Source: Actinomycetota bacterium (GTDB taxonomy: Bacteria; Actinomycetota; UBA4738; HRBIN12). From it: a stretch of DNA of 35,911 nt. The notes beneath the pieces were generated by a model that ran no database searches, was not told where the DNA came from, and worked only from the letters and a program-made list of their open reading frames with translations. A program made the position numbers and the translations under genes. This document shows positions 5,673 to 27,593 of this stretch, piece after piece (position 1 is the first letter of the stretch; each line of letters starts with the position of its first letter). The stretch spans positions 1 through 35,911 of the forward strand of contig DATEDE010000072.1 of assembly GCA_035286545.1 (NCBI GenBank), given 5' to 3'.

Positions 5673-5692
5673 CGCGACCGCCTCTCCGCGGG

Positions 5693-6682: not shown

Positions 6683-6827
6683 CGCTCACCTATCGCGTCG
6701 GTCACGCTGCCTCGTCGTGGGTCGCGGATCGTCGTACCGTTCGAGGCGCCGATCGCCATCGGGCCAAGCCCGACTTGACTTCGCGACGTAGGACCGGGTA
6801 CAACCTGACCGACCTCGTTGGTCTAAA

Positions 6828-6835
6828 ATCGTACC
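6828..6835 (-). promoter_or_regulatory. GGTACGAT (minus strand), candidate extended -10 element for the AKR-tautomerase-DpaA-like operon
   Basis: The AT-rich core GGTCTAAAATCGTACCAAAGTAGGG sits in the divergent intergenic region 6683..6883. The reverse complement of ATCGTACC is GGTACGAT, the same octamer found upstream of aceE. The top strand also carries TAAAAT at 6824-6829 facing the ABC operon. Confidence 0.3.
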
Positions 6836-6883
6836 AAAGTAGGGCGAGCAGCGGTTCACCTGGCGCCGAGCGGAAGGCGAGCC

Positions 6884-7660: not shown

Positions 7661-7667
7661 CGGAGGC

Positions 7668-9313: not shown

Positions 9314-9466
9314 GCGTGCGGAGGCGGCGCAAGGGAGAGGAGGGCCGGGGAGGTGGTCGATGCCTGCAGTCGCTCCCGCCGTAGGGCGACGGGGGCTGGC
9401 CGGGGTCTAACGGGTCCCGGCGGTACGCGCATCATCGAGCGCACGTTGGACCGAAGGGAGGGCACG

Positions 9467-10573
9467 TTGAAACGACGGCACGTAAGGATGTTGGCGCTGG
9501 TCGCGGTCCTGGCGCTGGTTGGGGCTGCGTGCAGCGGCGATGAGGACGGAGGCGGGGGCGGCGACGGCGAGGCGGACGTCGTCCGGCACGCGGCGGGGTC
9601 GACCGCCGACGCGTACATCCCGCAGTACCGCGCGCCAGAGATCTTCGGAGACCTGTTCGGCATCAGCACGGACGAACACCTCCAGATGTTCGAGGAGGGC
9701 TCGCTCGCCGCGCAGGTCGTGGCGACGGGTGACGCCGACGTCGGCTCCGGTGGTTTCACGAACATGGTGCAGCTCCTCGAGACCGGCCAGGACGTGAAGG
9801 TCTTCTGTCCCACCCAGAAGGACAGCACGGAGCACCTCATTGGGCGGACCGACGTGATCACGTCGCTCGAGCAGATCACCGACCCGGACGTCCGCGTCGC
9901 GGTCGAGAGCGCCGGTGGGTTCCTCAACCTGTTGATGAACCTGGTCTTCCTGAACCGGGACATCGGCATCACGACCGATGACCTCACGAACACCGTGATC
10001 CTCGAGGACGGGAGCCTACGACTGGCGGCGATGGCCGCGGGCGACGTGGACGTCGCGTCGCTCGACCTGTTCGAGCAGGCCGACCTGAAGGCGGAGCTCG
10101 GCGAGGACGCCGTGACGGTCCTCTCCGTCGTCGCGGAGGACGCGGAGTTCCTGTCGAACGTCCTGTGGGCGAAGACCGACTGGCTGGCGGAGAACGCGGA
10201 CGTCGCGGCGCGCTACTGCGCGACGGTGCTGTACTCGAACCGCCAGATGGCGTCCGACTACGAGCAGTACAAGGCCGCGCTGGAGGAGTTCTCGGCGACG
10301 GGGATCGAGGACGAGGCCGTCGTCCAGGCCAACTGGGACTTCGCGAAGCAGTACGAGGTCTGGCCGTACAACACGACGGTCCTCACGCCGGAGGTCATCG
10401 CGGATCAGCTCCAGGTGTCGGTGGACACCGGCATCATCGAGCCCGAGACCGGTGAGCTCGGCTTCGAGGACCTCGTCGACACCGAGGTCTTGGCGATGGC
10501 GCAGGAGTACCTCGGTGGTGAGGTGACTGCCGCGGACGTCGATTCGGGCAACATCCCCGAGCCGAACGCCTGA
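9467..10573 (+). CDS. ABC transporter substrate-binding lipoprotein (NMT1/SsuA-like)
   Basis: TTG 9467 lies 5 nt after GGGAGG and gives MKRRHVRMLALVAVLALVGAAC, i.e. a basic n-region, a hydrophobic core and a lipobox-like Cys. This is followed by an acidic Gly/Asp linker (SGDEDGGGGGDGEAD). ATG 9488 is an alternative start. Confidence 0.7.
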   Translation: MKRRHVRMLALVAVLALVGAACSGDEDGGGGGDGEADVVRHAAGSTADAYIPQYRAPEIFGDLFGISTDEHLQMFEEGSLAAQVVATGDADVGSGGFTNMVQLLETGQDVKVFCPTQKDSTEHLIGRTDVITSLEQITDPDVRVAVESAGGFLNLLMNLVFLNRDIGITTDDLTNTVILEDGSLRLAAMAAGDVDVASLDLFEQADLKAELGEDAVTVLSVVAEDAEFLSNVLWAKTDWLAENADVAARYCATVLYSNRQMASDYEQYKAALEEFSATGIEDEAVVQANWDFAKQYEVWPYNTTVLTPEVIADQLQVSVDTGIIEPETGELGFEDLVDTEVLAMAQEYLGGEVTAADVDSGNIPEPNA

Positions 10574-10651: not shown

Positions 10652-11386
10652 ATGAGCAGGTACGTCCTGGTCCACGGGTCCTGGCACGGAAGCTGGGTGT
10701 GGGATCGCGTGGCGCCGATGCTCGCCGACGCGGGCCACGACGTCGCCACACCTGACCTGCCCGGCCGCGGCGGCGACCCGCGCGACCCGGCGTCCGTGAC
10801 GCTCGCCGATCACGTCGACGCGGTCGTCGAGGTGCTCGAAACGTCGGGCCGTCCCGCGATCCTCGTGGGCCACAGCTTCGGAGGGTTCGTGATCAGTCAC
10901 GTGGCCGAGCGCGTGCCCGAGCGCGTCGAGCTGCTCGTGTACGTGGCGGCGTTCCTGCTCCGGCACGGCGAGACGGTGCTGGGGGTCGCGACCTCCGTGC
11001 CGCCGTCCGTCCCGCATCTCGACGTAGGGGAGGAGGAAGGCCTGATCGTGGTCCGGCCCGAGGCGGCGCCGCTCGTGTTCTATGACGACTGCTCCCCGGA
11101 GGACGCGCGCTGGGCGACCGCGCTCCTGGTGCCCGAGGCGCTCGGCCCCCGTCGGACCCCTGCGGCGCTGACCGAGGAACGGTTCGGAAGCGTCCCGCGC
11201 GTGTACGTGGAGACGACGAACGATCGCGCGCTCACCGTCTCGCTCCAACGCCGGATGCACTCGGCTCTCCCGTGCCGCGAGGTCGTCGCGATCGCCTCGG
11301 GCCATTCGCCGTTCCTGTCCATGCCGGAGACCCTCGCCGAGCGGCTCCTGGCATGGGCGACGACGCGACCGGAGACGGCCGACTGA
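10652..11386 (+). CDS. Alpha/beta hydrolase (esterase/methylesterase-like)
   Basis: 244 aa. N-terminal VLVHGSWHGSWVWDRV, nucleophile elbow GHSFGG, C-terminal SGHSPFLSMPE (catalytic His region). Confidence 0.8.
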   Translation: MSRYVLVHGSWHGSWVWDRVAPMLADAGHDVATPDLPGRGGDPRDPASVTLADHVDAVVEVLETSGRPAILVGHSFGGFVISHVAERVPERVELLVYVAAFLLRHGETVLGVATSVPPSVPHLDVGEEEGLIVVRPEAAPLVFYDDCSPEDARWATALLVPEALGPRRTPAALTEERFGSVPRVYVETTNDRALTVSLQRRMHSALPCREVVAIASGHSPFLSMPETLAERLLAWATTRPETAD

Positions 11387-11403
11387 AGGAGGACGAACGC
11401 ACC

Positions 11404-12075
11404 ATGAGCGGACCATCGACGGGACCTGCCGACGACGACGTGCTTGACCCGGTGCGTTGCCTGCTCGCCGTCATCGACGTCCAGAACGACTTCTGTCACG
11501 AAGATGGCGCGTACGCGCGGATGGGACATCCGGTGGGCATGGCGGCCGCGGCTGTTGAGGGGATCCGCGCCACCCTGGACCTCGCCAGCCGCGTCGACGT
11601 GCCACGGGTCGTCGTGCGGGTCGCGCACTCGCCTTGGACCGACGATCCCGCGTGGGCCGCGCGGGGCGCCGCGGGCTCCGTCCTCGACGTCGTGCGGGTC
11701 CCGGTCGCACGCGAGGGGACGTGGGGCGCCGAGTTCTTCGGGATCGAGCCCGACCCCGACGCGATGGTGCTCACGAAGCACCGGTACTCGGCGTTCGTCC
11801 ACACCCCGCTCGAGCTGTACCTGCGCGCGCGCGGCGCGACCACGATCGTCCTCGCGGGCGTGGCGACGAACGTATGCGTCCACGCGACCGCCCGGGACGC
11901 GCTGCACGCGGGCTTCCTGCCGGTCGTGCTCGAGGACGCGACCGCGGCGCATAGCGCGGAGGCGCATGAACGCGCGCTCGAGGACGTCCGGAGCTTCATC
12001 GGTCGCGTCGCGACCGTCGCCGACCTCGAGCGCGCGTGGGGCGGGTCGCGTATGCCCGCCGCCGCAGGCGCCTAG
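11404..12075 (+). CDS. Isochorismatase-family cysteine hydrolase (RutB / N-carbamoyl or ureido-amide amidohydrolase-like), copy 1
   Basis: ATG 11404 follows GAAGGAGGA. Asp/Lys/Cys triad context: AVIDVQNDFC, TKHRYSAF, ATNVCVHATARDA. Also EGTWGAEFF. Confidence 0.85.
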   Translation: MSGPSTGPADDDVLDPVRCLLAVIDVQNDFCHEDGAYARMGHPVGMAAAAVEGIRATLDLASRVDVPRVVVRVAHSPWTDDPAWAARGAAGSVLDVVRVPVAREGTWGAEFFGIEPDPDAMVLTKHRYSAFVHTPLELYLRARGATTIVLAGVATNVCVHATARDALHAGFLPVVLEDATAAHSAEAHERALEDVRSFIGRVATVADLERAWGGSRMPAAAGA

Positions 12076-12107
12076 CGTGGTCCGGCCCGCGGCACGCGGG
12101 AGCGTCC

Positions 12108-13007
12108 GTGTCGGCTGAGGGGTGGGCGCTGTTCTCCGCATGCTGCTTCGCCGGCTCGCACGTCGTCTCGAAACGCGGGCTCCAGGACACGAGCGTCACG
12201 GCCGCCTCGCTCATCGTCCTCAGCGTCTCGTGGGCGGTGATCGCGGTCGCCGTCCTGCTCGATCCGCCCGCCGAGGTGGCGCCCCGGGCGATCGTCGTCT
12301 ACGGCGCGCTCGGGCTGATGGTGCCGGCGATCTCCAGGTGGGCGGTCCTGAAGTCGGTCGACGTTCTCGGGCCGTCGATCGCGATCCCGATCCAGCAGGG
12401 CCTGCGACCGCTGCTCGCGGTGACCGGCGCGGCCCTCCTGCTCGACGAGGACGTCGGGCTCGTCCGCGGGATCGGCGTGCTGCTGATCATCGCCGGCGGT
12501 TGGCAGCTGTCGAAGCGTCCGCCGGAGGACCGGGTCGGGTTGGACGTCGCTGCAGGGTCGCGCGAGCGTCGGTGGGCGCTCCGCCCGGGGATCGTGTTCC
12601 CCGTGATCGCTGCCGTGGCGTACGCCGCGTCGGACCTTCTGGTCCGCTCTACGCTCGGGGACGATCTGGCCGAGCCGAGCTTCGCCGCGATGGTGAGCAC
12701 CGGGTCGGGGCTGCTCGCGTGGCTGCTCGTCGTGGTCGCGATCCGGCCGATGCGCGCCTCGATCCGGTTCGGTCGCGCCGCGTGGTGGCTCGTCGGGTCG
12801 GGCGCGCTGATCGGGTTCGCGATCCTCGGCGTCTACCAGGCGCTCAGCCGCGGCGAGGTCTCGCTCGTCACGCCGATCAACGCGACGCAGCCGCTGATAG
12901 TGCTGCTGTTCTCGACGCTGCTGCTCCGGGACCTGGAGCGGATCCGACCGATCACGGTCGTCTCGGCCACGGAGATCGTCGCCGGGGCCGTCCTGGTGTC
13001 GCTGTGA
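12108..13007 (+). CDS. EamA/DMT-family membrane transporter
   Basis: About 299 aa of repeated hydrophobic helices (WALFSACCFAGSHVVSKRGL..., ...YQALSRGEVSLVTPINATQPLIVLLFS...). GTG 12108 is chosen because it lies after the upstream stop. The track start 12036 would overlap the preceding gene by 40 nt. Confidence 0.6.
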   Translation: MSAEGWALFSACCFAGSHVVSKRGLQDTSVTAASLIVLSVSWAVIAVAVLLDPPAEVAPRAIVVYGALGLMVPAISRWAVLKSVDVLGPSIAIPIQQGLRPLLAVTGAALLLDEDVGLVRGIGVLLIIAGGWQLSKRPPEDRVGLDVAAGSRERRWALRPGIVFPVIAAVAYAASDLLVRSTLGDDLAEPSFAAMVSTGSGLLAWLLVVVAIRPMRASIRFGRAAWWLVGSGALIGFAILGVYQALSRGEVSLVTPINATQPLIVLLFSTLLLRDLERIRPITVVSATEIVAGAVLVSL

Positions 13008-13017
13008 GGAGGTCGTG

Positions 13018-13734
13018 ATGTCGAGCGGTTGGCGCGACGTGATCCCACCCGAGGACCGGGCGATCTACGACGCGGCCGGGTACGGCCGGCGGGGGCGGCG
13101 AGGTACTTCGCCGGCGCTCCTCGTGATCGACGTAACGTACGGGTTCATCGGACGCGAACGGCTCCCGATCCTCGAGTCGATCGCCCGGTACCCGAACTCG
13201 TGCGGCGAGCGCGGGTGGGACGCGATGCAGCGCATCGAGCGACTCGTGGACCTCGCGCGTGAGGCGTCGGTGCCGATCTACTACACGGCCGGCGTCACGG
13301 ACCACGCGGTCGCGCACGCCGGGCGCTGGCGGGAGAAGCACCCGCGGACGCTCGAGCAGCCGAAGGACGCGCATGTGATCCCCGAACCGATCGCGCCGCG
13401 GGACGGGGACATCGTGATCCGCAAGACGAAACCGAGCGTCTTCTACGGCACGCCGCTCCTGTCGTCGCTCGTCGACCACGGGGTCGACACGGTGATCGCG
13501 ACGGGATGCACCACCTCCGGGTGCGTGCGCGCGACCGTCGTCGACGCCTTCTCGAACGGATTCGCCACGATCGTCGTCGAGGACGCCGTGTTCGACCGGG
13601 GCGAGCTCAGCCACGCCGTGAACCTGTTCGATATGGACCAGAAATATGCGGACGTGATCGACACCGACCAGGCGCTCGCCTACCTGGAGTCGCTGGGCGA
13701 TCGTCTCGACCGGCCGGGAGCGCCGACCCGATGA
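13018..13734 (+). CDS. Isochorismatase-family cysteine hydrolase (N-carbamoylsarcosine amidase / maleamate amidohydrolase NicF-like), copy 2
   Basis: ATG 13018 lies 5 nt after GAGGAGG (GTG 13015 is too close to it). Triad context: LLVIDVTYGF, IRKTKPSVFYGT, ATGCTTSGCVRATVVDA. C-terminal NLFDMDQKYADV. Confidence 0.8.
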   Translation: MSSGWRDVIPPEDRAIYDAAGYGRRGRRGTSPALLVIDVTYGFIGRERLPILESIARYPNSCGERGWDAMQRIERLVDLAREASVPIYYTAGVTDHAVAHAGRWREKHPRTLEQPKDAHVIPEPIAPRDGDIVIRKTKPSVFYGTPLLSSLVDHGVDTVIATGCTTSGCVRATVVDAFSNGFATIVVEDAVFDRGELSHAVNLFDMDQKYADVIDTDQALAYLESLGDRLDRPGAPTR

Positions 13735-14690
13735 TCCTCCTGAAGGCGGACGAGGTTCGCGGTCTCCTCGACCCCGGCGCCGTGCTCGCGACCGTCGAGG
13801 AGGCGCTGCGCATGGAGCACGCCGGCACGGTGCGATGGTCCTCACCGGCGAGCCTGCGGGTGGCCGGCGGCGACGGGCAGGGACGGGTCCGCGTGAAGGC
13901 GTGCTCGCTCGACGGACCGAGCGTGACCGGCATACGCGTCCTGCACTTCCCGGCGGCGGGCGCGGAGACCAGGTGGGTCCTCCTGTTCGACGGCGTCTCG
14001 GGCGAGCCGCTCGCGATCGTCGATGAGGCCGCGACGTATGGTGATCGATCGTTCGCCTCGGTCGCGCTGCTCGCGCATCGGGTCCGCGTGGATCCGGTCG
14101 ACACCGTCGCGATCCTCGGCGCCGGGCGCATCGCACGCGCCGCGCTCCCGTACGTGGCCCACCGGTTCCCGGGCGCCGCGGTCGAGATCGCCGCGCGTCG
14201 CCCTCCGGCCGCCGCCACGCTTGCCGACCTCGCGCGCGCCCGCCACGGCCTGCGCGCGACGCCGACGTCGTTCGAGACGGCCGTCCGGACGGCGCAGGTC
14301 GTCTTCGGGTGCACGAGCGCGATCGAGCCGATCGTCCGCGAGCAATGGGTCGCCCCCGGGACGGTGGTCGCGTCCCTCGAGCCCCGCGAGCTCGAGCCTG
14401 CGCTGTTCGCCGGCGCGGACCTGCGGGTCGTGGACCGTCGCGAGCAGCTGGGCGAGGAGCTCGACGATGCGTTCGGCCCCGGAGCCTCCGAACGGGTGGA
14501 CGCGACGATGGCCGAGATCGTCGGCGGCGCCCATCCGGGGCGGACGGCGGCGGGCCAGCGGATCGTGATCGTCAGCCAGGGCCTCGTCAGCCAGGACGTC
14601 CTGCTCGCCGAGCGCGTGTTCCGCGAGGCCGTGGCGCGCGGGATCGGCAAGGCGATCGCGCTGCCACCCGTCCCGGGTCCCGCGCGGTGA
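13731..14690 (+). CDS. Ornithine cyclodeaminase / mu-crystallin family protein (possible ketimine/imino-acid reductase)
   Basis: ATG 13731 overlaps the upstream stop (ATGA). 319 aa. Rossmann VAILGAGRIARAAL. The N-terminal LKADEVRGLLDPGAVLATVEEAL pattern is typical of the family. Confidence 0.7.
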   Translation: MILLKADEVRGLLDPGAVLATVEEALRMEHAGTVRWSSPASLRVAGGDGQGRVRVKACSLDGPSVTGIRVLHFPAAGAETRWVLLFDGVSGEPLAIVDEAATYGDRSFASVALLAHRVRVDPVDTVAILGAGRIARAALPYVAHRFPGAAVEIAARRPPAAATLADLARARHGLRATPTSFETAVRTAQVVFGCTSAIEPIVREQWVAPGTVVASLEPRELEPALFAGADLRVVDRREQLGEELDDAFGPGASERVDATMAEIVGGAHPGRTAAGQRIVIVSQGLVSQDVLLAERVFREAVARGIGKAIALPPVPGPAR

Positions 14691-14716
14691 TCCCTACCCG
14701 GTGTTCGGTTGTATCG

Positions 14717-14726
14717 AAGGTCCGAT
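14717..14726 (+). promoter_or_regulatory. AAGGTCCGAT, a weaker relative of the AAGGTAGGAT element, upstream of the aminotransferase gene
   Basis: It matches 8 of 10 positions of the element at 20257-20266 and 24291-24300. It sits in the AT-richer 88-nt gap 14691..14778. Confidence 0.2.
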
Positions 14727-14778
14727 GTATGTCATAAGACGAGCGAGCCCGTCGGGTGTTCCGACGGCGGAGGAGCCG

Positions 14779-15957
14779 ATGGCGATGCGCCTGTCGACGC
14801 GGATGGAGCGGCTCGGGACCGAGTCGGCCTTCGAGGTGCTCGCCCGCGCTCGGGCGCTCGAGGCGCAGGGGCGCACCATCACGCATCTCGAGATCGGCGA
14901 GCCGGACTTCGCGACGCCGGCGCACGTAGTCGAGGCGGCGGTCCGGGCGCTCGAGGCGGGCCACACCCATTACGTCCCCGCACCCGGGATCCCGGAGCTC
15001 CGCGAAGCGGTCGCGGAGTTCCTCGAGCGCACCGGCCGCATGGCCACTTCGCCCGACCGGGTCGTAGTGACGCCCGGCGCCAAGCCGGTGCTTTGGTACG
15101 TGCTCCACGCGGTGTGCGAGGAGGGCGACGAGGTCCTCGTTCCCGACCCGTCGTTCCCGATCTACGCGTCGCTCGCTTCGTTCGTCGGCGCGACGCCGGT
15201 CCCGGTCCCGCTCCGCGAGGAGCATCGGTTCCGCCTCGACCCCGCGGAGCTCGCCTCGCTCGTCTCCGATCGGACGAAGCTCCTGATCGTGTCCTCGCCC
15301 GAGAACCCGTGTGGCAGCGCGCTCACGCGGGAGGATGTCGAGGCCATCGCGAGCATCGCGATGGAGCACGACCTCCTCGTGCTCTCCGACGAGATCTACT
15401 GGGCGATCCGCTACGACGGACGCGAGCACGCCAGCGTCCTCGACGTCGACGGGATGCTCGACCGGACCGTGCTCCTCGACGGCTGGTCGAAGACGTTCGC
15501 GATGACGGGGTGGCGGCTCGGGTTCGGCGTGTTCCCGGCGTGGTTGGTCGAGCCGGTCACGCGGCTCGTGATCAACTCGGTCTCCTGCACGCCGGCCTTC
15601 GGTCAGCACGCCGCGATCGCGGCGCTCCGCGGACCGTGGGACCCGGTCGAGGCGATGGTGGCCGAGTTCGCCCGTCGCCGCGACGTCATCGTCGACGGGC
15701 TGAACGCGATCGACGGGATCTCCTGCGTCCGACCCGGCGGCGCGTTCTACGTCTTCCCGAACATCCGCGCCCTCGGCGCGTCGTCGCACGAGGTAGAGCG
15801 GCACCTCCTCGACGACGCGGGCGTCGCCGTGCTCTCGGGGACCGGGTTCGGGGCCTACGGGGAGGGCTACCTGCGCCTGTCCTACGCAGCGTCGGTCGAA
15901 CGGATCCGCGGCGCCATCGAGGCGATCGGTGCATCCGTCGGGGCGCTCGTGCGATGA
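14779..15957 (+). CDS. Class I/II PLP-dependent aminotransferase (aspartate aminotransferase-like)
   Basis: ATG 14779 lies 4 nt after GGAGGAG. 392 aa. ...ITHLEIGEPDFATP..., SSPENPCG, and SKTFAMTGWRLGF (PLP lysine context). Confidence 0.85.
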   Translation: MAMRLSTRMERLGTESAFEVLARARALEAQGRTITHLEIGEPDFATPAHVVEAAVRALEAGHTHYVPAPGIPELREAVAEFLERTGRMATSPDRVVVTPGAKPVLWYVLHAVCEEGDEVLVPDPSFPIYASLASFVGATPVPVPLREEHRFRLDPAELASLVSDRTKLLIVSSPENPCGSALTREDVEAIASIAMEHDLLVLSDEIYWAIRYDGREHASVLDVDGMLDRTVLLDGWSKTFAMTGWRLGFGVFPAWLVEPVTRLVINSVSCTPAFGQHAAIAALRGPWDPVEAMVAEFARRRDVIVDGLNAIDGISCVRPGGAFYVFPNIRALGASSHEVERHLLDDAGVAVLSGTGFGAYGEGYLRLSYAASVERIRGAIEAIGASVGALVR

Positions 15958-15996
15958 CGGGACGCCCGTGCACCCACGATCGGAGGAGGAGCTCAC

Positions 15997-16311
15997 GTGG
16001 CTGAGACCCGGCAACACCTGGCGCTGACCTACGAGGGGGCGGCGACGGTGCTCGCCGCCGCCGTGCGGAGGACCGAGGAGATCGGCGCGCGGCAGTGCAT
16101 CGCCGTCACCGACGACGGTGGCTACCTGCTCGCGTTCGGGCGGACCGACGGCGGGAAGGCGACGAACCTGCGGGGCGGGCTGCCGATCGTCGTGGACGGC
16201 CATCTGATCGGCGCGATCGGCGTGGGTTCGGGCACGGGGGAGCAGGACGTCGAGGTTGCGGCGGCCGGCGTCGCGGCGCTCGCGGGTGCGAAGGACTGGA
16301 CGAACGAGTAG
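15997..16311 (+). CDS. GlcG/HbpS-like (DUF336) protein, shortened
   Basis: GTG 15997 follows GGAGGAGGAG. 104 aa. IAVTDDGGYLLAFGRTDG and GGLPIVVDGHLIGAIGVGSGTGEQD match the two ends of GlcG-type proteins, but the central ~35 aa appear absent. Confidence 0.6.
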   Translation: MAETRQHLALTYEGAATVLAAAVRRTEEIGARQCIAVTDDGGYLLAFGRTDGGKATNLRGGLPIVVDGHLIGAIGVGSGTGEQDVEVAAAGVAALAGAKDWTNE

Positions 16312-16319
16312 GGGGAGCG

Positions 16320-17477
16320 ATGAAGATCACCGAGGTCGAGACCTTCAACGTGGCGCTGCCGTGGCGCCGGCTGCACAAGATGGCGTTCCCGTCCGGCAAG
16401 CTCGGGAACTACTCGATCGTCCGCATCCGCACGGACGAGGGCTTCGAGGGGCTGGGCGAGGCCACCGTCATCAAGGAGTGGGGCGGCGACTACGGCCGGT
16501 ACTTCGGTGAGTCCCCCGAGCTCACGGTCGCCGTCATCAACTCGGTGCTCGGACCCGCGCTGATCGGCCACGACCCGTTCGCGATCGAGCGCGCGCATCG
16601 CGAGATGGATCTCGCGGTGAAGGGTTACCCCTACGCGAAGACCGCGATCGACGAGGCGCTCCACGACATCAAGGGGAAGGCGCTCGGCGTCCCCGTGTAC
16701 GAGCTCCTCGGCGGCCTGTGGCGCGAGGAGATCCCGATCGCGCACTCGCTCGGGTGGATGGAGTACGAGGAGGCGACGTCGGAAGCGGCCGCCGCCGTCG
16801 CCGAGGGCATCCGCACGATCAAGATCAAGGTCGGCCGCTCGGAGGAGTACGACGTCCGGATCGTGCGCGAGGTCCGCGAGACGGTCGGCGATGACGTCGA
16901 CATCGTCGTCGACGCGAACCAGGGATGGCCGACCCCCAAGCACGCGATCCGCGTGCTGCGCCAGATGCAGGAGTACCGGCTCCGCTACGCGGAGCAGCCG
17001 GTCGAGGGGATCGCACGGATGGCCCGGGTCGCGCGGGCGGTCGACGTGCCCATCATGGCCGACGAGAGCGCCTGGACCCCGCAGGACGTCCTCGAGATCG
17101 TCGAGCGCGGCGCCGCGGACATGATCTCGCTCTACACGACGAAGCCGGGCGGTCTGTTCAAGGCCAAGAAGGTGGCGGCGGTGGCCGAAGCGGCCGGCCT
17201 CCCGCTCAACGTGAACGGCTCGCACGAGACCGGGGTCGGGAACGCGGCGAACCTGCACCTCGTAGCCTCGACGGCGGCGGTCACCGAGGCGGGCGTGTTC
17301 CCCGTGACGACGATCGAGGGCAAGGAGCCGACCACGATGGCCGGCAAGATGTACCTCGACGACATCATCACGCAGCCGTTCGAGTACCGCGACGGCAACC
17401 TGATCGTCCCGTCGGGCCCGGGCCTCGGGATCGAGCTCGACGAGGAGAAGGTCGCGCGCTACCGGACCGGGGGGTAG
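16320..17477 (+). CDS. Enolase-superfamily enzyme, muconate-lactonizing (MLE) subgroup (racemase/epimerase/cycloisomerase/dehydratase)
   Basis: 385 aa. KxK motif IKIKVG, metal ligands in VVDANQGW, AEQPV, MADES, and a second catalytic Lys in LYTTKPGG. Confidence 0.85.
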   Translation: MKITEVETFNVALPWRRLHKMAFPSGKLGNYSIVRIRTDEGFEGLGEATVIKEWGGDYGRYFGESPELTVAVINSVLGPALIGHDPFAIERAHREMDLAVKGYPYAKTAIDEALHDIKGKALGVPVYELLGGLWREEIPIAHSLGWMEYEEATSEAAAAVAEGIRTIKIKVGRSEEYDVRIVREVRETVGDDVDIVVDANQGWPTPKHAIRVLRQMQEYRLRYAEQPVEGIARMARVARAVDVPIMADESAWTPQDVLEIVERGAADMISLYTTKPGGLFKAKKVAAVAEAAGLPLNVNGSHETGVGNAANLHLVASTAAVTEAGVFPVTTIEGKEPTTMAGKMYLDDIITQPFEYRDGNLIVPSGPGLGIELDEEKVARYRTGG

Positions 17478-17482
17478 CGGCG

Positions 17483-18610
17483 ATGGCGATCCGAGACGTC
17501 GCGATCCTCGGAGCCGGCAACGGCGGCTGCGCCGCGGCCGCGGACCTCGGCAGCCGCGGGTACCGCGTCCGGCTCTACAACCGGTCGTCCGAGCGGTTGG
17601 TCGGCATCGTCGAGCGAGGCGGGCTCGAGAAGCTCGGTGCCGCCGGCGAGGGGTTCGTCGAGATCCCGGTGGTGACGACCGACCTGTCGGAGGCCGTCGG
17701 CGGCGCGGATCTCGTCATGCTCTCCGTCCCGATCTCGACGCACCCGTTCTTCGCGCAGGGTCTGGCCCCCCTGCTGCAGCCGGACCAGGTCCTGTTCCTG
17801 AACCCGGGGCACATGGGCGGGGGCCTCTTCATGGCGCACGAGCTGCATCGCCTGACCGGTCGCACGGACGTCCGGATCTGCGAGACGAGCACGCTCACCT
17901 ACGGCTGCCGGATGCGGGGCCCGGGGACGGTGAACATCATGGCGACGATGACGAACCTGCCGTTCGCGGCGTTCCCGGGCCGCAACCAGCAGGAGCTCTA
18001 CGACCTGATCGCGCCGCTCTACCCCGACATCGTGCAGGCGTCGCACGTGCTCGAGACGGGCTTCATGGACATCAACGCGGTCGAGCACCCGCCGCAGATC
18101 ATCTGCAACGCGGGGTGGCTCGAGCACACCAAGGGCGACTACCTCTTCTACTACGAGGGCACCACGCCGGGGGTCGCCCGCGTGATCGAGGCGCTCGATG
18201 CCGAGCGGATGGCGATCGCGGCCGCGGCGGGCATCCCGACCCGCCCGTTCGTCGAGGTGTTCCACGCGATGGGGTACACGAGCGCGCACGCGGCCGAGGT
18301 CGGCTCGGCGTACGTGGCCCTGCAGGAGAGCGAGCCGAACCGATGGGTGAAGGGCCCACCTACGCTCGACCATCGCTACATCAACGAGGACGTCGGCTGG
18401 GGCCTAGTGCCGTGGTCGGAGATGGGTCGCTCGTTCGGCGTCCAGACGCCCACGATGGATGCCCTCATCGTGCTCGGGGGCGTCCTGAACGGGCGCGACT
18501 ACCGCGCCGAGGGCCTGACGCTCGAGCGGCTCGGCCTCGCCGGCGTGCGCCCCGAAGACCTGGACGCGTACCTTCGGGAGGGCATCGCTACCGTGGAGGG
18601 TGGTGGATGA
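17483..18610 (+). CDS. Opine dehydrogenase family NAD(P) oxidoreductase, paralogue 2
   Basis: ATG 17483. 375 aa. Rossmann VAILGAGNGGCAAAADL. ...DINAVEHPPQIICNAGWLE... and ...RYINEDVGWGLVP... parallel the motifs in paralogue 1. Confidence 0.7.
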   Translation: MAIRDVAILGAGNGGCAAAADLGSRGYRVRLYNRSSERLVGIVERGGLEKLGAAGEGFVEIPVVTTDLSEAVGGADLVMLSVPISTHPFFAQGLAPLLQPDQVLFLNPGHMGGGLFMAHELHRLTGRTDVRICETSTLTYGCRMRGPGTVNIMATMTNLPFAAFPGRNQQELYDLIAPLYPDIVQASHVLETGFMDINAVEHPPQIICNAGWLEHTKGDYLFYYEGTTPGVARVIEALDAERMAIAAAAGIPTRPFVEVFHAMGYTSAHAAEVGSAYVALQESEPNRWVKGPPTLDHRYINEDVGWGLVPWSEMGRSFGVQTPTMDALIVLGGVLNGRDYRAEGLTLERLGLAGVRPEDLDAYLREGIATVEGGG

Positions 18611-20190
18611 CGAAGCAGCGGATCGCGGTCTTCTCCGGTCCGAACGCGACGATCGCGAACTCACCGACGCTCGTCACGAGCAACAAGGGCCGACGTCCCG
18701 GTGAGCGCCGGCTGGACGGCCGGTTCGATTCCCTCGTGGCGCAGGAGCTCTACGAGCCCGTGACCGTGCGCATCAAGCGGTTCAGCGCCCACCCGCTCGA
18801 GGCGGACGCCGCCGGCGTCTACCACGAGCCGGACCGGGCCTACGACGAGGTCGAGCTGCGTCCGGAAGATGGCCCGTACCCGTTGCCGTACGTCTCGAGG
18901 CGGGCCGACGGGTCGCCAGACGGCGTCCCGTTCGAGGACGAGGACCTCGAGGATCGGTCGATCGGCTACGGCGGACGGCAGTTCTACTACCCGGACGCCG
19001 CGCGGCTGTTCGCGGAGATCGATCGGACGATCACCGGTCGTGACGAGGACGGCAGCGGCAGTACGCTCGATCGCCGCGCCGACTTCGACTTCATCCGTGT
19101 GCTTCCGTCGGGCGGCTACGCGTCTCGTGGGGAGGTTAGCGGCCGCGACTACTTCCCCTACAAGCCACGTGCGATCGCGCACCGTCCCCGGTATCGCGAC
19201 CTCGCGACCGCTACGAACGTCGTCCGCGAGGCGATGCGCTCTGGCCGGTACGCGGGCGGCATCTGGCTCGAGGCTAGTCCCACCCTCGAGGAGACGCTCT
19301 ATTGGTGCAACCTCGTGCTCGACATCGATATCTCGCTCGTGGGCTGCGCGTCGCAACGCCCGCACGGGCAGTTGGCCAACGACGGCGACCGCAACATCGT
19401 GGACGCCATCGACTTCATCCTCTCGGGGGAGAGGCTCGGCGTCGTCGCGCTCCAGGACGAGAGGATCTTCGCAGCGCGCGAGTTCAAGAAGGCGGATGAC
19501 CGTCCGGGGAACTACAAGGTCACGGGAGGCCACGGCGGGATCCTCGGTAGCGTCGGGCCGCCGGTCACGGTCTGGTACCGACCGGCGTACAAGCACACTC
19601 ACACGTCGGAAGTGAACCTTCGACGGTTACCCGAGCAGGTCGCCTTCCTCGACCGCGCCGACGATCGGTCTCCAACGACCATCCGGATCAAGGACGGTGA
19701 GCGGCTGCGGCCCGAGGTGATCCCGCGGGTCCACATGGTCAAGTACGGCGCATACATGGACGAGGACGTCCTCGATGATCCCGATGGGGAGGTCGACATC
19801 ATGGCGAGGATCGCCAGGGGTCTCGAGCAGCAGTCGCGGGCCATCGAAGGCGCCCCGCCGTTCCACGGTTTCGTGTTCGAGGGGCTGTCTCCGTACGCGT
19901 ACGGGAGCGGGTCGCAACGCGAGGCGCTGAAGATCGCCGCCTTCAGCGGGATGCCCGTGGTTCGCGTGGGGCGCGCGGATCCCGGCGGCATGGTCCCGAA
20001 GCGGGGCTGGCCGCATGCAGTCACCGGCAGCAACCTCGATGCGAACAAGGCCCGGATGCTGCTCATGGCGAGCATGCTGAAGCTCGGCCGTTGGCCGAAG
20101 GCGAAGGACCCTAGGCATCCGACGCCGGAAGAGTGCGACGCGCTGTACGCTGCGGTCGCCGCGTATCAGGCCCTCTTCGATACGCACTGA
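18607..20190 (+). CDS. Divergent asparaginase/glutaminase-fold protein (527 aa) with non-canonical active-site motifs
   Basis: ATG 18607 overlaps the upstream stop (ATGA). [14 protein letters not shown] resembles the I..ATGGTIAG motif. [19 protein letters not shown] resembles [44 protein letters not shown] resembles [37 protein letters not shown] resembles the C-terminal KARILLMLAL. Confidence 0.55.
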   Translation: [527 protein letters not shown]

Positions 20191-20254
20191 GAGCCCGGAG
20201 AGGTCACCTGCGGTGCTCGCAACCCGTTGCGACGCGGAGGGTTCTCACTTTGAC

Positions 20255-20266
20255 TAAAGGTAGGAT
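20255..20266 (+). promoter_or_regulatory. TAAAGGTAGGAT element (candidate extended -10 / operator) upstream of the tautomerase operon
   Basis: This 12-mer is repeated exactly at 24289..24300. It contains TAGGAT (a TANNNT-type -10) preceded by GG. It sits in the 184-nt gap 20191..20374. Confidence 0.4.
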
Positions 20267-20306
20267 ATTATGCCGAAGTTGCGTGCGTGGGGGGCGCGGT
20301 CGTCGA

Positions 20307-20332
20307 GGGGCACCGGGGCGCACCCGTGCCCC
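20307..20332 (+). other. GC-rich hairpin in the 5' leader of the tautomerase operon
   Basis: GGGGCAC-CGGGGCGCACCCG-GTGCCCC forms a 7-bp perfect outer stem plus inner pairs. It lies between the -10-like element and the SD/GTG at 20375. Confidence 0.35.
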
Positions 20333-20374
20333 GCTCGCGGGTGCCGACCACCGGACGTGGAGAGGGGAGGAGAG

Positions 20375-20575
20375 GTGCCGAACGTCACGATCGAATGGCT
20401 CCAGGGCCGCTCGCTCGACCAGAAGCGGAAGGTGATCGCCGGGATAACCGATCTGCTGGTCGACATCGCCGACGCCCGCCGCGAGGCCGTCCAGGTCACG
20501 TTCATCGACATGAGCAAGGAGGACTGGGGTCGCGGCGGGCTCCTCGGCATCGACCGCACGGACGTCCATCCGTGA
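20375..20575 (+). CDS. 4-oxalocrotonate tautomerase family protein (66 aa), paralogue 2
   Basis: GTG 20375 follows GGAGAGGGGAGGAGAG. The product MPNVTIEWLQGRSLDQKRKVIAGITDLLVDIADARREAVQVTFIDMSKEDWGRGG... is identical to paralogue 1 at 42 of 66 positions in an ungapped alignment. Confidence 0.85.
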   Translation: MPNVTIEWLQGRSLDQKRKVIAGITDLLVDIADARREAVQVTFIDMSKEDWGRGGLLGIDRTDVHP

Positions 20576-20934
20576 GCATCCCCAAGCGCGTCCACCACCT
20601 GCTCCTGCAGACCCGCGACCTCGAGGCGGCCGAGGCGTTCTACGTCGGGTTCCTCGGCTTCTCGGTTAGGAAGCGCGAGCAGTTCCATGACGGCCGCCCC
20701 CTCACGACGACGGAGGAGGGGCTGGGCCTGACGAACGGCGTCCGGGGCGAGGCCGGCAGCGTCGTCGAGCACATCGCGTTCCGGACGAGCGACATCCGCG
20801 GGCTCGCCCAGCGCGCCGAGGCCCAAGGCATCGAGGTGCTCAAGCCGCCCGGCCCCGGCCCGTACGGCCTCACGGTCTACCTCGCCGACCCCGACGGGAA
20901 CAGGATCGAGCTGTTCTCCGAGGAGGAGGCTTGA
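20572..20934 (+). CDS. VOC-family protein (glyoxalase / bleomycin resistance / dioxygenase fold), single module
   Basis: GTG 20572 overlaps the upstream stop (GTGA). 120 aa. VHHLLLQTRDLEAAEAFYVGFLGF ... EHIAFRTSD ... VYLADPDGNRIELF is the classic VOC pattern. Confidence 0.8.
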   Translation: MSIPKRVHHLLLQTRDLEAAEAFYVGFLGFSVRKREQFHDGRPLTTTEEGLGLTNGVRGEAGSVVEHIAFRTSDIRGLAQRAEAQGIEVLKPPGPGPYGLTVYLADPDGNRIELFSEEEA

Positions 20935-21860
20935 GCCGGGAGGATTCCCCGGTCGAGTGGGCGAAGCTCCGGATCGCCGTGGTCGCGGGCGATGAGCGCG
21001 ATCCGGAGATCGCGCGTCTGGCGGCGGAGACCGGCGCGACCGTGACGGCGTTCGGCATCCCCTGGCCGCCGCAGGGCGTCGCGGGCGTCCAGCTCGCGGA
21101 GTCCGCCGCCGCCGCGGTCGACGGCGCGAACTACATCCTCTTCCCGATCCCGCTCGGGGTCGGCGCGGTCCTGTATGCCCCGCACGCGACCGAGCCGATC
21201 GTCGCCGACGAGGCGTTGTTCTCGAAGGCCGCGCCGGACGCGTGGATGTTCTGTGGCCGGCTCCGCGACGAGATCCGGGCGTCGGCCGACGCGGCGGGCG
21301 TGTACGTCCACGAGTACGACCCCGACAGGGAGCTGATGCTCCTGCGCGCCCCGGCGATCGTCGAGGGGGCGCTCCAGCAAGCGATCGAGGCGACGGACGT
21401 GACGATCAACGACGCCGAGGTCGTCGTGATCGGGTTCGGCAACATCGGCCAGCTCCTCGCGCGAACGCTCCGTGGGCTCGGTGCCCGCGTCCACGTCGCC
21501 GCGAGGAACCCGATCCAGCGGGCGGGGGCCTATGCCGACGGCCTACTGCCGCTCTCGCTCGATGAGCTCCACGACCTCGCCCCCTCCCTCGACATGGTCT
21601 TCTCGACGGTGCCGGCGCCTGTCGTCGACCGCCCGTTCCTCGAGCGGCTGCCCACCGGCACGTTGGTCCTCGACATCGCACCTCCGCCCGACCACGCGGA
21701 CCTCGACGCGGCGGCGGAGCTCGGGCACCGGGCGGTGTGGGCGCGCGGCCTCGGGAAGCGCGCGCCGATCACGGTCGGCAGGAGCCAGTGGGCGGGGCTC
21801 CGCCGCTTCATCACCGAGATCGAGCTGGCGAGGCGGGAGGGGCGGACGTGGCAGGGATGA
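20931..21860 (+). CDS. DpaA (dipicolinate synthase subunit A)-like NAD-binding dehydrogenase, paralogue 2
   Basis: TTG 20931 overlaps the upstream stop (TTGA), the same arrangement as paralogue 1. 309 aa. IAVVAGDERDPEI, APAIVEGALQQAIEATDVTINDAEVVVIGFGNIG, ARGLGKRAPITVGRSQW. Roughly 60% identical to paralogue 1 by eye. Confidence 0.75.
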   Translation: MSREDSPVEWAKLRIAVVAGDERDPEIARLAAETGATVTAFGIPWPPQGVAGVQLAESAAAAVDGANYILFPIPLGVGAVLYAPHATEPIVADEALFSKAAPDAWMFCGRLRDEIRASADAAGVYVHEYDPDRELMLLRAPAIVEGALQQAIEATDVTINDAEVVVIGFGNIGQLLARTLRGLGARVHVAARNPIQRAGAYADGLLPLSLDELHDLAPSLDMVFSTVPAPVVDRPFLERLPTGTLVLDIAPPPDHADLDAAAELGHRAVWARGLGKRAPITVGRSQWAGLRRFITEIELARREGRTWQG

Positions 21861-26181: not shown

Positions 26182-27560
26182 GCGTCGTCGTCCGCGGCGG
26201 GCGCATCGTCACCGCGTCCGCGGACTTCGTGGGCGACGTCCTCATCGACGGGGAGACGATCGCCGCGATCGGGTCGTTCCCCGACATCGACGCACAGGTC
26301 ATCAACGCGAGCGGCAAGCTCGTGCTGCCCGGCGGCGTCGACCCGCACACGCACCTCGACGCGCCGCTGAAGGGGACGATGACGGCGGACGACTTCGAGT
26401 CGGGGACGATCGCCGCTGCGATCGGCGGGACGACCAGCATCATCGACTTCCCGGTGCAGGACAAGGGGCAGGACCCCCGCGTCTCCCACGAGGAGTGGGC
26501 CGGCCGCGCCGAGGGCAAGGCCGTCGTGGACTGGGGCCTCCACCAGGTGATCGTCGATCTGCCCGATGAGTACTTCCCGGCCCTGGACGACCTGATCGCG
26601 AACGGCTCGCCGAGCTTCAAGATGTTCATGGCCTATCCGGGCGCCCGGATGGTCGACGACGCGACGATCTTCAAGGCGATGCGGCGAACGGCCGACAACG
26701 GCGGCTTCGTCCTGATGCACTGCGAGAACGGCCCCGTGATCGACCTCCTCGAGAAGGAGGCGCTCGCCGCGGGGCACACCGGTCCCGAGTACAACGGCGT
26801 GACGCGCCCCCCGATCACCGAATCGGAGGCGACCGCCCGTGCCATCGCGCTCGCCGAGCTCGCCGGCGTCCCCGTCTACGTCGTTCACCTCGCCGCGGCG
26901 CAGGCGCTCGCCGCCGTCGCGGACGCTCGCGAACGCGGGCTGCCCGTCTACGCGGAGACGTGCCCGCACTACCTCCTGCTCACCGAGGAGGTGCTGAAAG
27001 AGCCCGACTTCGGGGGCGCGAAGTACGTGATGTGCCCGCCGCTGCGGACCCCGTGGCACCAGGAGCGCCTGTGGCAGGGGCTGCGGACGAACGACCTCCA
27101 GGTCGTCTCGACCGATCACACGCCGTTCCGGTTCGCGGACCAGAAACAGCTCGGGCGCGACAACTTCCCGAAGATCCCGAACGGCGTCCCCGGCATCGAG
27201 TGGCGGACGACGCTCCTGTACCACTTCGGCGTGCGCGAGGGGAGGATCGGGCTCAACCGGTTCGTCGAGCTGATCTCGACGACGCCGGCGAAGCTGTTCG
27301 GCTGCTACCCGCGCAAGGGCGAGATCGCGCCGGGCTCCGACGCCGACCTCGTGATCTTCGATCCCGAGCGCGAGACGACGTTGACCGCGGCATCCCAAGC
27401 CACGAAGAGCGACTACAACCCGTACGAGGGGTGGACCGTCCGCGGTGTCGTCGATACCGTGCTCCTGCGCGGGCAGGTCATCGTGGACGGCGGCCGGTTC
27501 GTCGGCAGGAAGGGGCAGGGGCGGTTCTTGCGCCGAGGGGCGTCCAGCGCGCTGGCCTGA
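26178..27560 (+). CDS. D-hydantoinase / dihydropyrimidinase
   Basis: GTG 26178 overlaps the upstream stop (GTGA). 460 aa. GGVDPHTHLD, SFKMFMAY (carbamylated-Lys context), VLMHCEN, VYVVHL and VSTDHTPF match the cyclic amidohydrolase metal-site pattern. Confidence 0.85.
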   Translation: MSVVVRGGRIVTASADFVGDVLIDGETIAAIGSFPDIDAQVINASGKLVLPGGVDPHTHLDAPLKGTMTADDFESGTIAAAIGGTTSIIDFPVQDKGQDPRVSHEEWAGRAEGKAVVDWGLHQVIVDLPDEYFPALDDLIANGSPSFKMFMAYPGARMVDDATIFKAMRRTADNGGFVLMHCENGPVIDLLEKEALAAGHTGPEYNGVTRPPITESEATARAIALAELAGVPVYVVHLAAAQALAAVADARERGLPVYAETCPHYLLLTEEVLKEPDFGGAKYVMCPPLRTPWHQERLWQGLRTNDLQVVSTDHTPFRFADQKQLGRDNFPKIPNGVPGIEWRTTLLYHFGVREGRIGLNRFVELISTTPAKLFGCYPRKGEIAPGSDADLVIFDPERETTLTAASQATKSDYNPYEGWTVRGVVDTVLLRGQVIVDGGRFVGRKGQGRFLRRGASSALA

Positions 27561-27593
27561 CGGCTCGCGACGCGTCGGGACGAGGAGGACGAG

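Follow-up and report, generated by a model that had tools for sequence, protein, structure and literature searches.

The contig DATEDE010000072.1 of an Actinomycetota bacterium (assembly GCA_035286545.1), whose 35,911 nucleotides (nt) were analysed over their full length and are called the window here, carries a gene for an asparaginase-like protein of 527 amino acids. ASPL is used here as the working name for this protein and its subfamily. Judged from sequence comparison, ASPL is probably an amide-cleaving enzyme for another nitrogen-rich acid, and the database label ‘L-asparaginase’ is likely wrong. The gene is the last of a tightly packed unit (Table 1), in which it follows an HbpS/GlcG-like gene, an MR_MLE gene of the enolase superfamily and a dehydrogenase gene of the Octopine_DH family (ODH, for opine dehydrogenase). 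The MR_MLE gene begins 8 nt past the HbpS-like gene and stops 5 nt ahead of the ODH gene, and the start codon of ASPL overlaps the stop codon of ODH as ATGA at 18607-18610. A preliminary description of this DNA, made from the sequence alone, had pointed out this overlap as well as the MLE-type gene upstream, and both are borne out (the latter at 16320-17477). A Shine-Dalgarno sequence (GGAGG, 18595-18599) lies 7 nt 5′ of the ATG. The N-terminus of ASPL agrees with the N-termini of its homologues, so that the start codon call is correct. The guanine plus cytosine (GC) content at the three codon positions of the open reading frame (ORF) is 0.68/0.48/0.87 in a genome of roughly 71% GC, a pattern that identifies a real gene. 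As read from sequence and predicted structure, with no signal-peptide predictor behind it, the N-terminus is free of a signal peptide, strand 1 occupying residues 5-10, and the protein is presumably cytoplasmic.

The preliminary description had proposed an asparaginase-like fold, to be checked with the Pfam hidden Markov models (HMMs) for asparaginases. ASPL scores 31.2 bits against PF00710, above the gathering cutoff of 22.5 bits, with only residues 200-297 matching profile positions 63-162. Against PF17763 it scores 17.1 bits, below the cutoff of 34.6 bits, and many of its relatives carry a precomputed PF17763 match. The scores against TIGR00520 (41.7 bits, curated cutoff 314.3) and NF008304 (16 bits, curated cutoff 506) are also below cutoff, and no model in NCBIfam covers the family. 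A phmmer search of the PDB returned type II asparaginases only, with a best E-value of 2e-11; with the family profile, hmmsearch reached PDB asparaginases at E = 1e-24 and aligned the C-terminal domain as well. In hhalign, the family profile matched E. coli AnsB with a probability of 98%, aligning AnsB residues 79-311 with residues 214-491 of the query and thereby the whole C-domain. The AnsB sequence used for this alignment has T12, Y25, S58, Q59, T89, D90, K162, N248 and E283 at the expected indices. An AlphaFold model built with 86 diverse family members in the alignment was confident throughout, with a predicted local distance difference test score (pLDDT) of 93.2 and a predicted template modelling score (pTM) of 0.93. 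An earlier run with a shallow alignment of 37 sequences gave a pLDDT of 69.9 and left the insertion described below unresolved. When the model was compared with the PDB by Foldseek, the top 50 matches were all type II asparaginases or glutaminase-asparaginases, with E-values down to 1.3e-16 and template modelling (TM) scores of 0.71-0.81 normalised by target and 0.44-0.52 normalised by query. A Foldseek comparison with viral structures returned nothing meaningful. From the model and these values, ASPL is predicted to have the full asparaginase fold with about 200 residues added. The possibility, raised in the preliminary description, of a fold that is not asparaginase-like does not agree with this set of matches, whose scores put homology to asparaginases well outside chance.

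In AnsB, T12 is the nucleophile that forms the acyl-enzyme, and T89, K162 and D90 form a second triad; D90, Q59 and E283′ contact the alpha-amino group of the substrate. Conservation of the corresponding positions was counted in an alignment of 357 full-length ASPL family members, 511-604 amino acids long, which were collected in three database searches. The loop directly after strand 1 reads SGPNATIAN (residues 10-18) in place of TGGTIAG, as had been described. T15 is present in 357/357 members, G11 in 356/357 and N18 in 351/357, and from its place in the fold topology and its invariance T15 would be the counterpart of T12. The replacement of HGTDT by EASPT, also described before, is confirmed at residues 222-226 by the phmmer, hmmsearch and hhalign alignments. 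At the position of Thr89, S224 is Ser in 354 of the 357 members and Thr in 3; at that of Asp90, P225 is Pro in 345, Ala in 8, Ser in 3 and Gly in 1, and never Asp or Glu. The sequence CASQRP (residues 247-252) is followed by H253 in 348/357 relatives. The catalytic Lys had been thought not to be evident. It was missed because it had been sought upstream of GAMRP, whereas K162 of AnsB lies downstream, in the RDVTK motif; K295 of ASPL aligns with it and is found in 357/357 members. R291 is equally invariant (357/357), and D297 (353/357) and R299 (355/357) are nearly so. Q46, W220 and E222 are further invariant or near-invariant residues that are specific to the family. No conserved Tyr was found in the family consensus over residues 17-45, the loop after the nucleophile that holds Tyr25 in AnsB, and the invariant Y95 and Y185, which lie elsewhere, might replace it. 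The hhalign counterparts of AnsB S58/Q59, N248′ and E283′ are not conserved as such. The earlier view that catalytic residues are altered therefore holds for Thr89 and Asp90 but not for Lys, which is kept; the nucleophilic Thr would be kept as well, as had been described. By these alignments the catalytic set appears less altered than first described, and with S224, P225 and no conserved loop Tyr it does not amount to the complete canonical Thr/Tyr/Thr/Asp/Lys set.

The residues added to the fold are found mainly in one place. T15 and S224 are 209 residues apart, compared with 77 for T12 and T89, which agrees with the spacings of about 208 and about 77 noted earlier. The cause is the insertion of about 130 residues that had also been proposed, and that predicted structure and hhalign now place at residues 66-195. 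It lies between the SAHPLE loop after strand 3, which probably occupies the place of the S58-Q59-D60 substrate loop of AnsB (low-confidence hhalign columns), and helix 196-210, which corresponds to the AnsB helix before the HGTDT strand. When residues 66-195 were deleted from the family alignment, the hhalign match extended to AnsB residue 39. The insertion contains many invariant residues (P94, Y95, R124, Q125, D130, R133, R140, R164, E176, Y185, P187). Residues 1-199 of ASPL had no Pfam match at E-values up to 10, and the insertion alone gave a best E-value of 0.02 against PDB sequences (a GAF domain), which is not significant. The glycine-rich GGHGG loop has no equivalent in AnsB in the hhalign alignment. 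At the start of the C-terminal domain a second insertion forms a beta hairpin with predicted strands at 344-347 and 357-360, and hhalign shows a further addition of about 15 residues in the C-domain before the last helix. By analogy with AnsB, the G421-A431 loop may reach the active site of the neighbouring subunit.

Table 1. Coordinates of ASPL, its motifs and the genes of its unit in the window
Feature	Position	Strand	Basis or conservation
HbpS/GlcG-like gene, first of the HbpS-MLE-ODH-ASPL unit	15997..16311	+	PF03928; same order in relatives
MR_MLE enolase-superfamily gene	16320..17477	+	PF13378, PF02746; TIGR02534 265 bits, below 335 cutoff
Octopine_DH-family NAD(P) dehydrogenase gene (ODH)	17483..18610	+	PF02317 133 bits; no NCBIfam equivalog
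Shine-Dalgarno GGAGG and ATGA start/stop overlap with ODH	18595..18610	+	direct sequence reading
ASPL gene, stop codon included	18607..20190	+	uninterrupted translation of 527 amino acids; PF00710 match; AlphaFold model; Foldseek
Motif 1, S10-G-P-N-A-T15-I-A-N18, in place of TGGTIAG	18634..18660	+	loop after strand 5-10; T15 presumed nucleophile
S60-A-H62-P-L-E65 loop after strand 3	18784..18801	+	H62 355/357, P63 356/357, E65 357/357
Insertion of about 130 residues (66-195), mixed alpha/beta subdomain	18802..19191	+	predicted secondary structure, pLDDT mostly >80
Motif 2, W220-L-E-A-S224-P225-T-L-E-E-T230 (AnsB Thr89 to Ser, Asp90 to Pro)	19264..19296	+	hhalign, phmmer
A248-S-Q-R-P-H253, counterpart of GAMRP(S)	19348..19365	+	phmmer, hmmsearch and hhalign alignments
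A290-R291-E-F-K-K295-A-D297-D-R299-P-G301 (K295 = AnsB K162, R291 = R158)	19474..19509	+	hhalign columns
Glycine-rich loop G307-G-H309-G-G311, family-specific	19525..19539	+	G307 and G311 357/357, H309 330/357
Second insertion (344-371), beta hairpin, start of C-terminal domain	19636..19719	+	28-column gap opposite AnsB in hhalign
G421-F-V-F-E425-G-L-S-P429-Y-A431, aligned to AnsB C-domain loop SAGVGNGN	19867..19899	+	hhalign; E425 356/357, P429 352/357
C-terminal F524-D-T-H527 and stop codon	20176..20190	+	His last residue in 356/357 relatives

We favour the reading, with a probability of roughly 0.6, that ASPL would be an active amidohydrolase for a carboxylated amide or ureide other than asparagine. 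The preliminary description had offered two options, an amidase with new specificity and a non-catalytic binding subunit. The first is supported by the intact fold, by the near-absolute conservation of Thr, Ser and Lys, and by the family-wide replacement of an Asp that contacts the substrate. The second is disfavoured, since T15, S224 and K295 are conserved almost absolutely across phyla, as expected for a constrained enzyme. In the proposed mechanism, T15 in the GPxATIxN loop would attack a terminal amide or ureido group at its carbonyl, assisted by the S224-K295 pair that corresponds to Thr89-Lys162 of AnsB, and the orienting function of D90 may have passed to D297 or E222. An acyl-enzyme would form with departure of ammonia, or possibly urea, and water would then hydrolyse the intermediate as in type II asparaginases. 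The substrate would be one other than free L-asparagine. It is expected to be without a free alpha-amino group, because the residues that bind this group, Asp90 among them, are gone from ASPL. One or more carboxylates are suggested by the many invariant arginines, of which R124, R133, R140, R164 and R299 were counted in the family alignment, and by the TctC or peptide/opine-type binding proteins encoded at some loci. Together with the subdomain inserted beside the substrate loop, the change of Asp90 to Pro and the invariant arginines thus point to a carboxylated amide or ureide.

That ASPL might be an ordinary L-asparaginase or glutaminase on a decorated scaffold has to be considered, given its fold, a PF00710 score above threshold, the retained Thr and Lys, and names such as ‘L-asparaginase’ or ‘asparaginase domain-containing protein’ at JGI and NCBI. 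We consider this very unlikely. The scores against TIGR00520 (41.7 against 314 bits) and NF008304 (16 against 506 bits) are far below the cutoffs, Asp90 is replaced by Pro throughout the family, and the Tyr in the loop after the nucleophile is not conserved. The counterparts of S58/Q59, N248′ and E283′ of AnsB are not conserved either, about 200 residues are added, and the genes found next to ASPL encode amide and ring-opening enzymes and not functions of amino-acid metabolism.

ASPL belongs to a large family. At 90% identity, the first database search gave 3,472 clusters, and 83 ASPL representatives with E-values below 1e-30 were found in a library clustered at 50% identity. The family is strongly constrained, with 60-69% identity between members from Actinomycetota and Chloroflexota. 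Metagenome assemblies of Actinomycetota and Acidimicrobiales supplied the closest relatives (75-91% identity). Marine Dehalococcoidia, including SAR202, contribute a very large group of 59-69% identity, with 67 species-level genome loci. A second clade of longer proteins (565-571 amino acids, 44-48% identity) occurs in Nitrospinota, Tectomicrobia, Rokubacteria, Binatia, Acidoferrales and proteobacterial assemblies, and a third, more diverse set of about 40-50% identity in Blastococcus, Nocardioidaceae, Trebonia and Rhodospirillales. A tblastn search of plasmids revealed full-length homologues, 40-43% identical, from cultured strains of Rhizobium tumorigenes, R. rhododendri, Agrobacterium vitis, Neorhizobium and Burkholderia. 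Members are named ‘L-asparaginase’, ‘L-asparaginase/GatD’ (JGI) or ‘asparaginase domain-containing protein’ in databases, and no curated model, solved structure or paper on the family was found in database and literature searches. ASPL is a distinct, large and unstudied asparaginase subfamily, set apart by a new subdomain and by the change in its catalytic motif; it introduces no new fold or principle. Two observations on single genomes are added here. A contig of 12 kb labelled Thaumarchaeota archaeon (JAPUIC010000036.1, locus L069) carries at its end a partial ASPL of 58% identity, which could reflect a transfer into archaea or faulty binning. The Dehalococcoidia metagenome-assembled genome NORP26 has two ASPL loci (L040 and L063), which are thus paralogues within one genome, and a hydantoinase-like neighbour is present at one of them only.

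To examine the genomic context, all neighbours in the window were compared by tblastn with 70 ASPL loci, 67 from genomes and 3 from metagenomes. The HbpS-MLE-ODH-ASPL unit recurs in two contigs whose ASPL proteins are 83% and 91% identical to that of the window, with the same 4-nt overlap of ODH and ASPL. After the unit, these two relatives carry genes for a tautomerase, a glyoxalase, a DpaA_N-like protein, a DAO-family protein, an M24/creatinase-like protein, an SDR-family protein, Amidohydro_2 and Amidohydro_1 proteins and an isochorismatase. In the 91% relative (locus L084, 17675-18971) the hydantoinase-type gene appears truncated, its product having 253 amino acids compared with 452 in the window, with a 171-amino-acid antisense call beside it; the gene may have decayed to a pseudogene, or the assembly may be at fault. 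Among the 70 loci, no ODH or MLE gene adjacent to ASPL was detected. The sole ODH match there has 32% identity and is located about 10 kb away from ASPL at an actinobacterial locus (L004); in one other actinobacterial contig, ASPL and an MLE gene are about 9 kb apart. The further metagenome contigs examined and the Rhizobiaceae plasmids showed no ODH. The MLE-ODH-ASPL module proposed in the preliminary description is therefore limited to the window and its 83% and 91% relatives; at the other loci examined, no ODH gene adjoins ASPL, and MLE is not part of such a unit. As a feature of the family, a three-enzyme module was rejected on the basis of the tblastn comparison. ODH appears, from the overlapping reading frames, to be translationally coupled to ASPL in the lineage of the window only. 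As a local arrangement, the coupling is not a defining feature of the family.

The coupling to ODH bears on a more specific alternative, in which ASPL would be a deamidase for N-substituted Asn or Gln, an opine-type amide such as a succinamopine-like N-(carboxyalkyl)-Asn. ASPL would take off the side-chain amide, and ODH would then cleave or form the secondary amine; Pro225 would give room to the N-substituent, and the arginine-rich insertion would bind the extra carboxylates. The ATGA coupling to an Octopine_DH gene is kept in three independent contigs, the arginines are invariant, and peptide/opine-type SBP_bac_5 binding proteins adjoin ASPL in Blastococcus and Rhizobium. The action of an asparaginase homologue on N-substituted Asn has a precedent in Salmonella FraE, and a succinamopine Ti plasmid holds ODH, asparaginase and hydantoinase/oxoprolinase genes together (PMC6733357). 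On the other hand, adjacent ODH is absent from the 67 genome loci and ODH from the other metagenome contigs and plasmids, and the asparaginase of the Ti plasmid is described as conventional. The putative active-site residues are invariant across lineages, which argues for a shared class of substrate that is independent of ODH. It seems quite unlikely that this explanation applies to ASPL.

Outside the lineage of the window, the neighbours of ASPL vary with the taxonomic group. In other Actinomycetota the gene is followed by EamA, FmdA/AmdA, luciferase-like, FrsA-like hydrolase and molybdenum hydroxylase (Mo-hydroxylase) genes in this order, with M24 and DpaA_N-like genes nearby. In SAR202, an Amidohydro_1 gene similar to hydantoinases and dihydropyrimidinases (TIGR02033 261 bits, below the cutoff of 393) is found near ASPL in 16 loci. 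It lies 43-112 nt upstream or 172-383 nt downstream in 14 of these and at a larger distance in 2, and an Amidohydro_2 gene stands ahead of it in five loci. Twelve SAR202 loci have an amidase-signature amidase plus a luciferase-like gene 1-6 kb from ASPL. In the second clade, a branched-chain-type ABC transporter, ASPL and Amidohydro_2 follow one another with a Mo-hydroxylase nearby, and in another contig of this clade a luciferase-like gene stops 3 nt before ASPL. Neorhizobium has a luciferase-like monooxygenase directly upstream of ASPL. Blastococcus shows the order SBP_bac_5, ASPL, amidase, and in one contig the gene directly upstream of ASPL encodes a TctC tricarboxylate-type binding protein. 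In Nocardioidaceae, an isochorismatase gene and an unannotated gene for 332 amino acids, which overlaps the ASPL start, precede ASPL, and more isochorismatase, DUF1989 and Amidohydro_1 genes come after it. R. tumorigenes (L086, pRt932, 11054-18735) and R. rhododendri (L088) carry three amidases, a peptide-type ABC transporter, FmdA/AmdA, ASPL and urease. Here FmdA/AmdA overlaps the ASPL start by 4 nt, and ureE-ureF-ureB-ureC-ureG-ureD begins 18 nt after ASPL, a linkage that points to a pathway ending in urea. In A. vitis, ASPL is preceded by genes for a flavin reductase, GntR, an ABC transporter, a luciferase-like oxidoreductase, an NtaA/DmoA monooxygenase and a hypothetical protein. A luciferase-like gene is located two genes upstream of ASPL in this species. 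Since enzymes that cleave amides or ureides or open rings, flavin monooxygenases, Mo-hydroxylases and uptake systems recur, the contexts of ASPL show the profile of nitrogen-rich compound catabolism and not that of amino-acid metabolism.

The start of ASPL overlaps the stop of the upstream gene in three unrelated lineages, namely at L082 (Nocardioidaceae, 8006-10569), at L086 (12001-12004) and in the window (18607-18610). The overlapping partners differ, being a 332-residue protein without Pfam match, FmdA/AmdA and the opine dehydrogenase, respectively. Translational coupling of ASPL thus appears from these sequences to be common, with a partner that changes. Such overlaps would suit a partner subunit, and they lend some weight to the view that ASPL is not a hydrolase at all and serves as a non-catalytic binding or scaffold subunit, or carries out another chemistry such as transfer, a lyase reaction or isomerisation. 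The loss of the triad Asp fits with this as well, and so do the large additions that the family conserves, namely the insertion, the GGHGG loop and an invariant His at the C-terminus. However, it is exactly the catalytic residues of asparaginases that are conserved, T15 and K295 absolutely and S224 nearly so, the upstream partner is another one in each lineage, and in many SAR202 genomes the ASPL gene is solitary. We regard a function other than hydrolysis as unlikely.

The unit in the window lies inside a catabolic island of about 30 kb. FAD and large subunits of a Mo-hydroxylase are encoded at 3-599 and 979-3486 (3-3486, forward strand), followed by a DpaA_N-like dehydrogenase, an aldo-keto reductase and an ABC transporter with an NMT1-like binding protein at 4570-6682 (reverse strand) and 6827-10570 (forward strand). 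The window has two paralogues that resemble dipicolinate synthase subunit A (DpaA_N-like), at 4570-5706 on the reverse and 20931-21857 on the forward strand, the latter with an NF006162 score of 182 bits, below the cutoff of 261. A DpaA_N-like gene is also found within 10 kb of ASPL in other Actinomycetota contigs (L002, L003, L004, L071), several of which have an M24/creatinase-like gene too. Further genes of the window encode an alpha/beta hydrolase, three isochorismatase-like hydrolases, EamA and a class I/II aminotransferase. Genes for a tautomerase, a glyoxalase, a DAO-family oxidase, an M24/creatinase-like protein, an SDR-family protein and an Amidohydro_2 protein lie 3′ of ASPL, and a TPP enzyme, another amidohydrolase and a GntR regulator (31610-32476, reverse strand) are present as well. 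A consensus scan of 13-25 kb found a single sigma-70-like match (TTCTCA-18 nt-TATTAT, 20242-20271, forward strand). It sits in a locally AT-rich patch of the 187-nt gap at 20191-20377, just 5′ of the tautomerase gene, and weakly suggests that ASPL closes a transcription unit. Two of the isochorismatase-like genes flank the EamA transporter gene at 11401-13731 (forward strand), their reading frames overlapping, and are followed at 13737-14690 by a gene of the ornithine-cyclodeaminase family. The contigs of the 91% and 83% relatives, although otherwise syntenic, have none of these genes, and a lineage-specific insertion is therefore suggested. Taken as a whole, the window looks like one island for the catabolism of an N-heterocycle or amide.

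The island encodes a bona fide D-hydantoinase/dihydropyrimidinase at 26202-27557 (forward strand; TIGR02033 558 bits, above the cutoff of 393). No carbamoylase of the nitrilase or M20 type was found in the window, and this role may be filled by an isochorismatase-like protein or by ASPL. ASPL is kept as one candidate only for the missing N-carbamoylase, because an isochorismatase-like gene (27561-28271, forward strand) follows the hydantoinase directly, 3 nt after it. Ureido-acids made by hydantoinase-like enzymes are among the candidate substrates of an amidohydrolase ASPL. Others would be amide-acids from the cleavage of N-heterocyclic rings, of the maleamate, succinamate or oxoglutaramate type, acylureas, in view of the urease linkage in Rhizobium, and N-substituted asparagines, for which FraE offers a precedent by analogy.

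Several points weigh against the amidohydrolase reading or narrow it. At the residue level, the equivalence of T15 and T12 comes from loop position and invariance; hhalign of the N-terminal 70 residues with AnsB gave a probability of 0.08, with no sequence support for matching TGGT to GPNAT. D90 is part of the AnsB triad, and its loss could mean a different chemistry and not just a different substrate. All-against-all clustering of neighbouring ORFs found no gene that accompanies ASPL universally, and about half of the SAR202 loci are without an informative neighbour, so that the substrate is not deducible from context. The association with luciferase-like genes is partly background, as SAR202 genomes are rich in luciferase-like paralogues. 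As a candidate for carbamoyl hydrolysis, the isochorismatase-like gene after the hydantoinase is more conventional than ASPL. With these points in mind, a wider proposal is put forward tentatively and with more doubt than confidence: the rebuilt scaffold, with Thr/Ser-Lys but no Asp, a lid subdomain of 130 residues, the GGHGG loop and the C-terminal His, might define a new enzyme family that acts on a common carboxylated amide or ureide and sets free ammonia or urea. The substrate could be the product of ring opening of a cyclic ureide or N-heterocycle, which SAR202 and the ‘dark-matter’ phyla of soil may harvest from recalcitrant organic nitrogen.

If the scaffold has been rebuilt in this way, the ‘L-asparaginase (ansA/ansB)’ calls in ocean and soil metagenome reconstructions would be partly wrong. 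ASPL is common in SAR202 Dehalococcoidia and in uncultured phyla of soil and groundwater. SAR202 has been described as dominating the bacterial community of the dark ocean, and ‘L-asparaginase (ansA, ansB)’ genes were counted in that study as evidence of the use of organic nitrogen (PMC11994032). If those counts include the ASPL family, the substrate assigned is probably wrong. The true substrate would add a reaction to the pathways of nitrogen mineralisation, and ASPL would show how the medically important asparaginase scaffold tolerates the loss of the triad Asp together with a large insertion in an active-site loop. Genetic tests are feasible, given the homologues in cultured Rhizobium tumorigenes, R. 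rhododendri, Agrobacterium vitis, Neorhizobium, Burkholderia and Blastococcus.

Among known systems, the type II asparaginases (E. coli AnsB/EcAII and the enzymes of Helicobacter pylori (2wlt/2wt4), Wolinella, Erwinia and Pseudomonas 7A) are closest to ASPL. They share the two-domain fold, with a TM score of about 0.8 to the target, a Thr in the loop after strand 1, and K162/R158, which are kept as K295/R291. The preliminary description had aligned four landmark blocks by eye; in the hhalign and profile alignments the blocks ...xEET, xxxRP, DGxxN, xxRxxxK, RHT and NxxKAR align. In contrast, sequence identity is 18-20%, the GPxAT loop is one residue longer, and the 130-residue insertion after the S58/Q59-type loop, the 28-residue hairpin and the 15-residue insertion in the C-domain have no counterpart. 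On the features that define type II L-asparaginases, ASPL falls outside the group: it scores far under the TIGR00520 and NF008304 cutoffs, has Ser-Pro for the Thr89-Asp90 pair, and is devoid of a conserved loop Tyr and of a signal peptide.

Salmonella FraE is an asparaginase homologue that deamidates fructose-asparagine, an N-substituted asparagine (PMC12359202). It belongs to a dedicated catabolic locus, and it shows that the scaffold is able to act on an asparagine substituted at the alpha-amino group (PMC12359202). It differs in being periplasmic and in being described as an asparaginase homologue of ordinary size, and fra-type genes (deglycase, kinase) are not found in the window. GatD, a subunit of the archaeal Glu-tRNA(Gln) amidotransferase, is from the same superfamily and likewise has a use other than the hydrolysis of free asparagine. 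GatD works with GatE, whereas no GatE-like partner was present in the neighbourhood gene tables examined; ASPL is therefore not a GatD. In the succinamopine catabolic region of pTiEU6, opine dehydrogenase, asparaginase and hydantoinase/oxoprolinase genes are found together (PMC6733357), which parallels ODH, ASPL and hydantoinase in the window. However, the asparaginase of pTiEU6 is considered to use free asparagine once the opine has been split, and the hydantoinase genes there belong to the HyuA/B type. On the A. vitis plasmid, moreover, ASPL sits with flavin monooxygenases and not with opine genes. A parallel in role may be offered by RutB, the ureidoacrylate amidohydrolase of the Rut pyrimidine pathway, which acts after a luciferase-like monooxygenase has opened a cyclic ureide. 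RutB has an isochorismatase fold that is unrelated to ASPL, and the analogy would be one of role only. The two gene sets are similar, with a flavin reductase, a luciferase-like monooxygenase, an alpha/beta hydrolase and a cysteine hydrolase.

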